Part shown: piece by piece, positions 9,908-13,427 of the stretch
Numbering within the stretch: the first letter of the stretch is position 1
Layout of the letters: every line of letters begins with the position of its first letter
Source: an uncultured archaeon
GTDB lineage: Archaea > Asgardarchaeota > Lokiarchaeia > Sigyniarchaeales > SOKP01
Length of the DNA: 21,052 bases
Direction: 5' to 3'
Assembly: GCA_964525635.1 (NCBI GenBank)
Contig: CAZGJX010000082.1
Coordinates: 1 to 21,052 of the forward strand
The notes under the pieces: model-generated
What the model saw: the letters and a program-made list of their open reading frames with translations, nothing else
Told to the model about the DNA's origin: nothing
Database searches by the model: none
Made by a program: the position numbers and the translations under genes

Positions 9908-9980
9908 AATGATAAATATAATTACTATCTGAAAGGGTGTTCCCAAATAAATAAACCAGATGATAATTCAGATAGAACAC

Positions 9981-10115
9981 TTAAAATGTGTAAGAAGCAA
10001 TTATATCATCATCTATAAGCCTTGTTTTTTTACATAAACAACATACTAATACCTTTTCATTATTAATTTTAGTTGGTAGCATAATAGCTCCACAATCATT
10101 ACAAAATTTTAACAT
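9981..10115 (-). CDS. Short Zn-ribbon protein like the TFS/Rpb9 (RpoM) N-terminal domain, possibly truncated
   Basis: MLKFCNDCGAIMLP...VCCLC. A strong RBS GGAGGTG (minus strand, 10123-10129) supports ATG 10115 rather than 10187. Only 44 aa, with no C-terminal TFIIS ribbon. Confidence 0.6.
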   Translation of the reverse strand: MLKFCNDCGAIMLPTKINNEKVLVCCLCKKTRLIDDDIIASYTF

Positions 10116-10471
10116 ATTTTCACACCTCCTACTTTTTTTGTAGAAAATATTATTTTCTCTATTTTTATTTTCTAAATTTCTGTACAAATATAGATTTCAT
10201 TTAAATCAATAATTCTTTTATTTTATATTTCTTTTTCTCGAGTAGTTATTAGGGAATAATAAATTTGATTTTTCCCGTGATATTATATTTTTCTTCCAAC
10301 AGTTATAGTATATTGAACATTATAATCGTGCTTAATCTCTATTATCTTTCATTATTTCACTCATAAATAATATCAACACTACATCTATAACTTTTTTTTT
10401 AATTCTATGAAAATTATAATCTACCATTTAAATTAGAATAATAATAAACAGTTCTTGATTAACCACTTTTT

Positions 10472-10723
10472 CTAATAAGATGCAATAAAAATTCTATTTG
10501 ATAATGAAAAATCTTTATATTTCGTATCATTAGGGGAGGGTTGTTTTTTTTGTTTATTTAAAAAAGGCATTCTTATTACAATTTTTTCTCGTGTCATATA
10601 AATATTATTAAAATATTTATTTGTTTTCTTATCATAATCTATGAACTTGTCGATGGATTTATCTTCCTGTAGAGTTATACCATTGTGATTTAACTTATTA
10701 TTTTTCCTTTTCATTTTACTCAC
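10472..10723 (-). CDS. Hypothetical small protein
   Basis: 83-codon ORF in very AT-rich DNA, with GTGA upstream of an alternative ATG at 10714. No recognisable motif. Confidence 0.3.
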   Translation of the reverse strand: MSKMKRKNNKLNHNGITLQEDKSIDKFIDYDKKTNKYFNNIYMTREKIVIRMPFLNKQKKQPSPNDTKYKDFSLSNRIFIASY

Positions 10724-11291
10724 TTTAAATATTTATTAATGAATAGATTTCTATCAAAAGATTATATTTTTCCTTATCTAATAATCTTATATGATATATA
10801 TTATAGAAGTAAAAAATTAACTTGATGATAAATTATTAAAAAAAAAAGAGATAGATTTCTTTCTAATTTTTTTATATCAATAATACTAAATATCATGCAT
10901 CGTATTTGATTCTTTGCTAAAGAAAAATAAAACTTTCGATTATTTAGCTCAAAAATTTAAAATCCTCTTTTCTTCAAGAAATAAAGTAAAATTCTTTCTT
11001 ACAAACCTATTATTTAATATTTTAAATGGTACTTAAACTTTTTTTCGATTTTATTTTACAATTTAAATTGTTATTTAATGATATCATGTTATATTCCTAA
11101 GATATTAATTTATAAAAAAAGATTTAAAATTGATTAATTATTGAATCTGATAAGATTTTCTCTATATTTCCTTTAGAAGGTATTTAATTTTAATTGATTT
11201 TATAATCAAAATATTATTTTTAATTGAAAAAATAAAAAATTTAGAAAATTAGAATTTTATCCAAATTGGGGATTTTGATAAATAGAGCAAA

Positions 11292-12302
11292 TTATGTAAA
11301 AATCTCTTTAATTAACCACTTTAAGGGTTCTATTAATAGTGGAGATTGCTGAGAAACATTTAGTGAATAAAATTTCAATGGAATATCTTTTTTATTTTTT
11401 AATTCTTTTAGCTTAAAAAATTTCTTAATTTCTTTTTCTCTTAAAGATGTCTTACTTTTAAAGGTATTATTTATAATTAAAAGTGGAATTTTACCAAGTA
11501 TTTTATTTAAATAAGAAGATATGAAATTCTCAATGAATATATTAACTTCATTAAAGCTATTTTTGTCTTTATTTTTAATAATATAAATTATTGCTTGAGC
11601 GTTCTCTAATTCAACATTACCTTCTGAAAATCTGGATGTACTTGGAATAATAATGTTATCAATTAAAACAGATAGAACTCTAGTGGAAATGTCCAATTTT
11701 CTTTGGCTATAAAATTGGATTGTTTCAATTGTTTTTAAAAAAGTATTTTTACCAGATCCTTTTGGTCCTAAGAGATAGACCTTTTTTTAAAGATTTATAT
11801 CTTGTGTAATAATTTTAATCTCTGATTCTGGAAATAATAAATTATAATAATTATCATAAAGAGAAAAAAATTCCACATTATCCTTTTTGCAATACTCAGT
11901 AAATTGTTTTATGGATGGATCTTTTTTATATTTATGCAAAACTAAGTTAAAATTTGGGAGATTTTTTAACTCAGATGCGAATTTTTCTAAAATGGATTGT
12001 TTTGAATTTAAATATTTTAGGATATCAGTGAGTTCATTTTTAAAATATGATGCTCGGATTATATAGGAAATCATTATTAAATCTTGCCCTCCTCTAGCAA
12101 GTTTAGATTCCATATAAAAAATAGTATTTATTGTCTGAAATTTTCGAAAAGAAAAAATAAATGTGCCTTCAACAGTACCAAATTCTAAAATTCTCGGTAA
12201 ATCGGGAAATTCATAAATATTTTTAATATCTAATTTACAATAAAGAATATTAGGACCTATACGCATGTCAAAATATGAAATAACTAAAAATTTTTCTATC
12301 AA
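11292..12302 (-). pseudogene. Longin/uDENN-like domain fused to a small GTPase-like domain, interrupted by one in-frame TAA (11787-11789)
   Basis: ORFs 11787..12302 and 11292..11696 share a frame. After the TAA the frame stays open as KKVYLLGPKGSGKNTFLKTIETIQFYSQRKLDISTR. The N-terminal part has SYFDMRIGP and LARGG longin motifs. Confidence 0.75.
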
Positions 12303-12649
12303 TTTTTTGTCTGGTATTTAATTTCAATTTAATAACATAATATAAGTTCATGATAATAGTTTTATCCTTTAAGAAATGTAAATCAATAATAAGGATCCTA
12401 AGAATCTTTCTTTTCAATATATCCAATAGATTAACTATAAAAAAAAAAGAAAAAAGCTCTAATAGAGTAAGGAAAAGTGGATAAAGAAGTCCTAAAAGAA
12501 CTTTAACTCTAAAATCATAAATATTTTAAATCAATTAAGAATTATTCTCTTAAAAATGCGATAATAAATCCAAAATTTAAAAGTTTATTTAATCTAAGAT
12601 TAATATTAAGAAAATTTAAAGATTTATAAAATAAGATTATTGATTATTT

Positions 12650-13063
12650 ATGTCTGAGGATTATATTAAAGGACAGATAAATTCAAAAGAAAGTGAAATA
12701 ACTAAAATTAATGAGGATGCATTTAGTAAATTAGCTTCTGCTGAAAAAGAAATTGAAGATGAATTTGATTCTCGTATTGAGAAATTAAAAGCTAAATTTG
12801 ATGAAGAAGTATAATTAAAAGATGAGGCTATTCAAAAGGCAGAGGAATGGACACAAAAAAAGAAAGAAAATATTTTATCAGCAAATACTGCTGGTAAGGA
12901 ACTTTCCCAATTGAAAAGTGAGAAAGAAAAAGCTAAAGCAGCTAAAATAAAAGAGATTCAAATTAATAAGCAAAATCAAACCAAAGAAGTTAAAAAAGAA
13001 ATAGTAGCATTAAAAAAACAAATAGCAACTTTAGAAAAAGAAAAAGCTAAAGCAGCTAAATAA
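12650..13063 (+). pseudogene. Charged coiled-coil protein (137 codons) interrupted by in-frame TAA at 12812-12814; missing from the ORF track
   Basis: MSEDYIKGQINSKESEITKINEDAFSKLASAEKEIEDEFDSRIEKLKAKFDEEV*LKDEAIQKAEEWTQKKKE...LEKEKAKAAK**. E/K/A-rich helical composition continues across the stop. Confidence 0.7.
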
Positions 13064-13427
13064 TAACATTTAATATTGCTGTTTTTATTCTTATCAAATG
13101 TAAAATTTCACATAGTTTATTAACTAACTCATTATTCATAGAAGAGATACTTAATATCTTATAAAGATTTATTGAAATATGAGATTAATAAAAGGAAATC
13201 AAAATTAAACTGATAAATTAATTATTTTTTTTCTTGACTAAACAAATCAATTAATTCCAATTCATTAATTTATTCTTTAAAGTCATTATTCATCAATAAT
13301 AATATATGCCAATTATACTAATATGTGGTCCTTTTAATAATTGAAGTGGTTATCCTATATTTTTGGATATTGTAAGATAAATATAATATCCCTTTTTTTA
13401 TATAAGTTTTTTTTATCCCCTATTCCA

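Follow-up and report, generated by a model that had tools for sequence, protein, structure and literature searches.

Probable recent inactivation of a duplicated Lokiarchaeia gene from a conserved family predicted to join a GAP-type longin to a degenerate Arf-like domain

The DNA stretch analysed here, referred to as the window, is the entire 21-kb contig C82 (CAZGJX010000082.1, 21,052 nucleotides) of a 4.45-Mb draft genome of an uncultured Lokiarchaeia archaeon (assembly GCA_964525635.1; 245 contigs, 27% GC), and the locus of interest lies on its minus strand, at positions 11292-12302. We take this locus, with a probability put at roughly 0.7, to be a copy of a conserved Lokiarchaeia/Promethearchaeota gene of about 336 amino acids (aa), an in-paralog that was inactivated recently (or was mis-sequenced). 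The product of the gene would consist of three parts: a longin of the type found in GTPase-activating proteins (GAPs), a linker, and a degenerate Arf-like domain. The simplest reading is that of a young, redundant duplicate at the onset of decay.

Positions 12302-11295 of the minus strand form a single frame of 336 codons, closed by a terminal TAA at 11294-11292 and interrupted by one internal TAA at 11789-11787, in agreement with the initial annotation, which had joined two annotated open reading frames (ORFs) into one frame of this length. The gene caller had placed the first ORF at 12302..11787 (171 aa, TTG start) and the second at 11696..11292 (134 aa), the latter being called late because a start codon is missing after the internal stop: no ATG, GTG or TTG occurs between the internal TAA and 11696, and no ATA or ATT before the P-loop. 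The 30 uncalled codons at 11786-11697 encode KKVYLLGPKGSGKNT and, with it, immediately downstream of the stop, the P-loop (KVYLLGPKGSGKNT) that had been proposed for this segment. The N-terminal motifs VISYFDMRIGPNILYC and IFYMESKLARGG are likewise found in the translation, and the codon of R70, AGA, is located at 12095-12093, as annotated. The frame is not a chance one, since the paralog on another contig of the same genome (C20) has CAA where the window has TAA, 29 of 41 homologs have Gln at this column, and the C-terminal half passes the Pfam Arf threshold. The features of the locus, all on the minus strand, are as follows.

11292..12302: the whole interrupted gene, 336 codons plus the terminal TAA; in-paralog of the intact 336-aa C20 gene, with 84% aa identity, no indels and a ratio of nonsynonymous to synonymous divergence (dN/dS) of 0.23.
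12300..12302: start codon TTG; ATG in the C20 paralog and in the same-genus ortholog, the alignment showing M at this column in 37 of its 41 homologs.
11913..12302: longin domain, residues 1-130, predicted from an AlphaFold2 (AF2) model and from Foldseek and VIA-wide structure matches.
12252..12257: GP motif, Gly16-Pro17, in the turn directly ahead of strand 2; conserved in relatives.
12090..12098: Ala69-Arg70-Gly71, candidate arginine finger in the strand 4-5 loop (R70 codon at 12093-12095), pointed to by its conservation.
11805..12032: helical region, residues 91-166, comprising the longin C-terminal helices and a subfamily-specific helical linker, from predicted secondary structure.
11787..11789: in-frame TAA at codon 172, a nonsense change of CAA (Gln).
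11295..11786: degenerate Arf-like G domain, residues 173-336, from Pfam Arf and VIA fold matches, with the P-loop GPKGSGKNT at 11742-11768.

The C20 paralog is an intact ORF of 336 aa, sharing 84% of its protein sequence with the window copy and carrying ATG in place of TTG and CAA (Gln) in place of TAA; contig C57 carries another intact paralog, 348 aa long. When the intact paralog was used as query, 44 database proteins were matched, most of them 329-347 aa long and over their full length; they come from metagenome-assembled genomes (MAGs) labelled as Lokiarchaeota, Promethearchaeota, Hodarchaeota or Thorarchaeota, and are nearly always annotated as hypothetical. Among 31 related genomes the other matches are uninterrupted in every case (17/17), the window copy being the sole interrupted one of 18, and no match at E<=1e-30 was returned beyond the window's own family-level group. 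At the stop column of a 42-sequence alignment, Gln is found in 29 and Lys in 6 of the 41 aligned homologs, and a stop in none. A longin and an Arf-like G domain in one chain is the conserved state of the homologs. Hence, the fusion proposed by the initial annotation holds for the paralog, the 44 database homologs and the 17 other matches, while the window copy itself carries a nonsense codon unseen in them and, with its stop at codon 172, is not the single intact polypeptide that had been envisaged.

The window copy lies within a duplicated segment.

9978..13170, no strand assigned: segmental duplication of 3.2 kb, 84.9% identical in nucleotides to C20 18070-21297.

The duplicate holds four genes in the same order, namely the longin-GTPase gene, two small ORFs and a divergent coiled-coil gene, and nothing in the remainder of the 21-kb contig corresponds to C20. 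With only 3.2 of 21 kb in common and differing flanks, C82 was ruled out as a co-binned strain variant of C20. Synonymous divergence (dS) between the window and C20 copies is 0.33, below the 0.46 that separates either of them from the single same-genus ortholog, and the duplication is therefore younger than the split from that ortholog. No indels separate the two copies, and their dN/dS amounts to 0.21 before the stop and 0.24 after it; such low values indicate that purifying selection acted on both halves during most of the period following duplication, so that the break must be recent, if it is not a sequencing error. All family-conserved residues are retained in the window copy, and a relative-rate comparison gave no clear excess of change (30 window-specific against 20 C20-specific aa changes). 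The CAA to TAA change at codon 172 would truncate the product behind the longin and linker, and a functional G domain cannot be made from the window copy, since no start codon is available between the stop and the P-loop.

Divergent from the longin-GTPase gene, a coiled-coil, Lys/Glu-rich gene occupies 12650-13063 on the plus strand. It presents a premature in-frame TAA at 12812-12814, where the intact 133-aa C20 copy has AAA, and this is the second premature stop in the duplicate.

The TAA at codon 172 might instead be an error of sequencing, assembly or population consensus in the MAG, leaving an intact gene for a normal 336-aa fusion. A single C-to-T difference separates the window TAA from the paralog CAA, which speaks for such an error, as do the dN/dS of 0.24 after the stop, the zero indels, the preserved family-conserved residues and the draft state of the genome, in 245 contigs. 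On the contrary, the same duplicate shows the change of the start from ATG to TTG and that of AAA to TAA in the neighbour, three independent errors within 1.5 kb are not to be expected, and decay is what a redundant duplicate should undergo; an error is accordingly regarded as unlikely. Scarcely credible is a functional stop, whether by division of the gene into a longin and a separately translated G domain or by read-through of TAA giving short and long products: stand-alone longins of the family do exist (for instance one of 158 aa in the same genome) and purifying selection was retained on both halves, but the first available start, TTG at 11696, would drop the P-loop and helix 1, none of ATG, GTG, TTG, ATA or ATT precedes the P-loop, no homolog is split here (44 database proteins, 31 genomes), and TAA is the main terminator genome-wide. 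Independent translation of the G half was in fact ruled out by the absence of a start codon between the stop and the P-loop, and we know of no described mechanism of archaeal TAA read-through. A recoded TAA was also ruled out, as this codon ends 1126 of the 1557 long ORFs of the genome (72%), plus most window genes. Recent inactivation of a redundant in-paralog thus remains the preferred account of the locus, and the architecture of the family is better read from its intact members.

A structure search with the full-length model returned a list filled by Arf-family chains, uninformative for the N-domain, and for this reason the N-domain was folded and searched alone. Residues 1-130, modelled by AF2 with 101 relatives, reached a predicted local distance difference test score (pLDDT) of 90.1 and a predicted template-modelling score (pTM) of 0.86. 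DSSP assigns to this model strands at 4-12, 16-22, 46-52, 55-65 and 73-83 and helices at 35-41, 91-99, 102-113 and 118-124, that is, the longin topology of two strands, a helix and three strands, with C-terminal helices packed on one face. Foldseek against the PDB gave, in its first 24 places, NPRL2, NPRL3 and Npr2 (from GATOR1 and the yeast SEA complex), FLCN, FNIP2, Lst4 and a Lokiarchaeota longin, with TRAPP and adaptor sigma longins ranking below those 24. VIA-wide, an independent structure search against 48,161 representative chains, matched the Lokiarchaeota longin 8yqg_B (Z 10.2, root-mean-square deviation (rmsd) 3.1, 116 residues), 8adl_S of the SEA complex (Z 9.3), FLCN 6nzd_H (Z 9.3, rmsd 2.6, 112 residues, 19% identity), NPRL2 8fw5_B (Z 8.3), VAMP7 2vx8_A (Z 8.0) and Sec22 3egd_C (Z 7.9). 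On the strength of the predicted model (pLDDT 90) and its structure matches, the longin fold of the N-domain, which the initial annotation had proposed, is considered established, with Npr2/NPRL2 and FLCN as closest eukaryotic structural matches. The modelled preference for GAP-type longins is consistent across methods and small in Z.

At the sequence level, neither the Folliculin (PF11704) nor the NPR2 (PF06218) model of Pfam matched the window's domain, and a profile of 8 sequences retrieved only spurious matches to designed proteins among solved structures. A profile of 37 sequences brought up an NPRL2 chain at E 0.3, sub-threshold and amid coiled-coil noise, the match spanning exactly the first hairpin with the GP motif. 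Relaxing Pfam to E<=10 gave, again below threshold, Afi1 (0.031, in 3 of the 37 members) and Folliculin (0.051, in one member), and the nearest named Atlas cluster carries Pfam NPR2 on 19% of its members, a lead only. These sub-threshold signals (NPRL2, Afi1, Folliculin, NPR2) are concordant with the GAP-type assignment.

The GAP longins have known catalytic arginine fingers, R164 in FLCN, R78 in NPRL2 and R147 in SMCR8. In the model of the window's domain, residues 2-121 align by VIA to NPRL2 6-121 and Arg70 falls near NPRL2 75-78, a placement made by ranges and not by residue superposition; Gly16-Pro17 precede the strand 16-22, matching the definition of the GP motif in PMC12290439. Conservation of these positions is high among 101 diverse relatives: G16 is found in 101, P17 in 96, N59 in 99, S66 in 90, A69 in 89, R70 in 97 and G71 in 98, while Ala69-Arg70-Gly71 is invariant among 42 close homologs.

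The breadth of the family was explored with a profile of eight N-domains from this genome, which collected 565 cluster representatives at E<=0.001. They are 87 to 2317 aa long, with the longin domain nearly always N-terminal. Of 151 genomes drawn from across the phylum, 65 encode the domain, among them all 29 of the window's family-level group. Pfam partners in 141 representatives include Arf (37), Ras (31), Roc (23), PAS (~28), HATPase_c (10), TIR (2) and SRPRB (17), small GTPases being the most frequent fusion partner, present in about a quarter of the 141.

On other contigs, the same genome encodes five more paralogs with the GP/Arg longin (L004:1492-2769, L005:1498-2652 and L007:1492-2655 on the plus strand; L006:964-1842 and L008:1300-1776 on the minus strand). 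Two are PAS fusions, the C-terminal regions of another two (425 and 292 aa) are uncharacterised, and the fifth is a stand-alone longin of 158 aa that adjoins an ABC-transporter ATPase gene. Among the representatives L009-L012 and P0046-P0193, some exceed 1000 aa (maximum 2317), with the longin at the extreme N-terminus.

The C-terminal half matches Pfam Arf at 27.6 bits (gathering cut-off 22.3), and in the full-length model the G-domain fold reaches by VIA a Z of 15.1 to Arf6 and of 14.4 to the Asgard GerdArfR1 over 143-150 residues. Its nucleotide-binding motifs are degenerate, and the motif columns of 41 homologs bear out what the initial annotation had noted (GKN, no clear DxxG, IINNTF). 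G1 reads GPKGSGKN-T in the window, with GKN in place of GK[ST] and D at this position in 30 of 41 close homologs (GKD); G3 reads IDNII in place of DxxG, with N216 in 41/41 homologs; and G4 reads IINNTF in place of NKxD (IINN[TV]F in the subfamily). Distant members of the subfamily keep GKT/GKS and NKxD-like motifs, DxxG being found in none, and the catalytic Gln is missing together with DxxG throughout. Replacement of the P-loop Ser/Thr by Asn or Asp belongs to the same class of mutation as Ras S17N and Arf T31N, both of which are defective in nucleotide binding. With both the Mg-binding Ser/Thr and the guanine-specificity motif NKxD lost, stable GTP binding is doubtful, and judging from these motifs the G domain of the window's subfamily is most likely a pseudoGTPase. 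The Arf N-terminal amphipathic helix was not found, a longin domain and a helical linker preceding the G domain.

A second class of fusions has its P-loop near residue 157, some 25 residues earlier than the window class (near residue 180), and its motifs are canonical: GK[ST], DxxG and NKxD occur together in 23 of 37 of these sister fusions, many of them with the Arf-typical GLDxAGKT. Taken at the level of sequence, the window's subfamily is a degenerate derivative within a family whose longin also joins apparently active Arf-like GTPases. Repeated fusion of one longin to Arf-like or Ras-like G domains, canonical or degenerate, supports a functional link between longin and GTPase.

As pictured from model and motifs, the intact protein would carry an N-terminal longin of the NPRL2/FLCN/SMCR8 type (GP ahead of strand 2, Arg in the strand 4-5 loop), a helical linker and a degenerate Arf-like domain. 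The longin may serve as a GTPase-interaction platform; by analogy with GATOR1, FLCN and C9orf72-SMCR8, its Arg/GP surface would face the site where a small GTPase binds its nucleotide, and we infer for that surface a putative role as GAP of small GTPases. In the canonical sister fusions, the fused Arf-like domain itself may be the partner of the longin; in the degenerate subfamily, the fused domain would more likely be a pseudoGTPase scaffold or pseudo-substrate, the Arg surface acting in trans. Stated in full for the subfamily with the P-loop near residue 180 (the window gene, its paralog and ~44 homologs), this proposal, a single-chain GAP longin and pseudo-Arf in which the latter is a pseudo-substrate or scaffold and Arg70/GP acts in trans on free Arf-related GTPases, is quite speculative and, as a whole, improbable.

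Several observations weigh against the assignment of GAP function. The VIA Z values of GAP-type longins are only ~1 unit above those of VAMP7 and Sec22, which the tool counts as a tie; the N-domain has no significant sequence match in Pfam or the PDB, nor have the window copy or its paralogs in Pfam; and the equivalence of Arg70 with FLCN R164 and NPRL2 R78 is drawn solely from motif, loop position and colinear ranges. In addition, the full-length model has a pTM of 0.51, so that the two-domain arrangement is not fixed by it, and a two-chain prediction of longin 1-128 and G domain 173-336 with GTP and Mg scored 0.00 in both runs, counting neither way. Finally, Arg is equally conserved in relatives without a GTPase domain (PAS/histidine-kinase fusions and stand-alone proteins), that is, whatever the output domain, a pattern that a structural or ligand-binding role could explain as well.

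This last aspect also speaks for a serious rival view, with the N-domain as a general sensor or dimerisation module, a longin/roadblock/GAF-like scaffold whose GP-N-S-ARG surface binds a ligand or partner and signals to the output domain. The domain lies N-terminal to many outputs (PAS in ~28 of 141, HATPase_c in 10, TIR in 2, and small GTPases), the fold search returned ligand-binding domains of the GAF, LasR and IclR types at Z 6-7, and Liu et al. link the same fusions to two-component signalling. However, the best structure matches are GTPase-regulating longins and not GAF or PAS, the pair of GP and Arg is the published signature of GAP longins (PMC12290439), and small GTPases are the single commonest fusion partner. 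A sensor role is thus possible, with an appreciable chance of being right, though doubtful on balance.

In a strict in-cis arrangement, Arg70 would complete the catalytic site of the G domain tethered to it, making a self-contained switch. Other GTPases without the catalytic Gln need an external Arg, so that the subfamily-wide loss of this Gln and of DxxG would suit such a device, as would the covalent tether conserved in the homologs. Against it stand the loss of the Mg-binding Ser/Thr (GKD/GKN, the Ras S17N/Arf T31N class) and of NKxD, which makes stable GTP binding doubtful, and the low inter-domain confidence (pTM 0.51). Conservation of Arg in proteins without a GTPase domain, together with the degenerate G domain, also argues against a simple in-cis GAP, which is regarded as decidedly improbable; action in trans, with the fused domain as a scaffold or pseudo-substrate, is the version of the GAP-longin proposal retained here.

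The minus strand also carries, at 10472-10723 and downstream of the longin-GTPase gene, an uncharacterised ORF of 83 aa, and homologous small ORFs recur as neighbours: one of 93 aa on C20, one of 110 aa on the same side in the same-genus genome, and one of 80 aa on the other side and strand in a genome of the same family. A small Zn-ribbon ORF at 9981-10115 (minus strand), of ~44 aa from an internal ATG, reads MLKFCNDCGAIMLP with two CxxC pairs; it is kept in the C20 copy and beside the same-genus ortholog, and presumably resembles the N-terminal ribbon of TFS/RpoM-type proteins. Synteny with the same-genus ortholog covers only these two small downstream ORFs. Conserved neighbours that could be functional partners were not found around these genes, the coiled-coil gene being absent beside the same-genus ortholog.

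At the lysosome of eukaryotes, Rag and Arf GTPases are controlled by the longin GAP complexes GATOR1, FLCN-FNIP and C9orf72-SMCR8, whose ancestry is now being followed back to the Asgard archaea. If a GAP longin is indeed joined to a pseudo-Arf in the window's subfamily and to canonical Arf-like domains in its sister fusions, this would be Rosetta-stone evidence that the ancestral clients of the NPRL2/FLCN/SMCR8 GAPs were of Arf type and not only of Rag type. The point would bear on a question left open in PMC12290439 (Traffic 2025), a work that defined the GP motif for GAP-type longins and described Folliculin-SMCR8-type Asgard longins without deciding between ArfR and Rag as partner. The intact C20 paralog and the canonical sister fusions are better proteins for study than the broken window copy, and the window locus itself adds only one case of a young duplicate under loss.

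Asgard NPRL2-like longins, many of them fused to two-component signalling domains, and longin-GTPase fusions were reported by Liu et al. (2020 preprint, 10.1101/2020.10.19.343400). Tran et al. 2024 (PMC10933270) found roadblock or longin domains in 26 of 74 small GTPases of MK-D1, including longin-GTPase architectures in the Rag/Arf-like class, and in the ArfR paper ArfRs with extra domains are mentioned, not described. Asgard longins of the NPRL2/FLCN type with GP and an arginine finger, as well as longin-GTPase fusions, are hence already published, and the explicit link of a GP/Arg longin to an Arf-like domain in one chain, together with the split into canonical and degenerate fusions, may be an incremental advance.

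Compared with the Asgard NPRL2-like and Folliculin-SMCR8-type longins, the window family shares the phylum, the fold, the GP motif with a conserved Arg, and fusions to two-component domains and GTPases; the papers on them (10.1101/2020.10.19.343400, PMC12290439) did not single out the degenerate-Arf-like subfamily of ~336 aa, and the window copy differs in being interrupted by a stop. The MK-D1 proteins of Ca. Prometheoarchaeum syntrophicum (PMC10933270) likewise join an N-terminal longin to a Rag/Arf-like G domain, but there the architectures were predicted and neither the GP/Arg signature nor the degeneracy of the G motifs was analysed.

With the eukaryotic NPRL2 (in GATOR1), FLCN (in FLCN-FNIP) and SMCR8 (in C9orf72-SMCR8-WDR41), the family has in common the longin fold, GP ahead of strand 2 and, in a later loop, Arg in an A-R-G context; the client GTPases of those proteins belong to the Rag or Arf family, and the domain fused here is Arf-like. 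On the contrary, the window family presents neither a DENN nor the NPRL2-specific C-terminal domain, having instead a degenerate GTPase-like domain in the same chain, and its sequence matches to the eukaryotic GAP longins remain below significance. A second longin subunit to pair with it did not come to light either, though no search was aimed at one.

With the Arf family, including GerdArfR1 (PDB 8oum/8oun), the window protein shares the G-domain fold and a Pfam Arf score above gathering; it departs from it by GKN/GKD in place of GK[ST], the lack of DxxGQ and NKxD, and the longin plus linker that replace the amphipathic helix. A longin is also paired with an Arf-like GTPase in the SRX domain of SRalpha and SRbeta, a likeness reflected in one homolog labelled 'SRP receptor subunit beta' in the database and in Pfam SRPRB on 17 members. 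The 50 best fold matches of the N-domain do not include SRX, which to our knowledge lacks both the GP motif and the Arg signature. In the SRalpha-SRbeta pair longin and GTPase are on separate chains, whereas in the intact members of the window family they form a single one.

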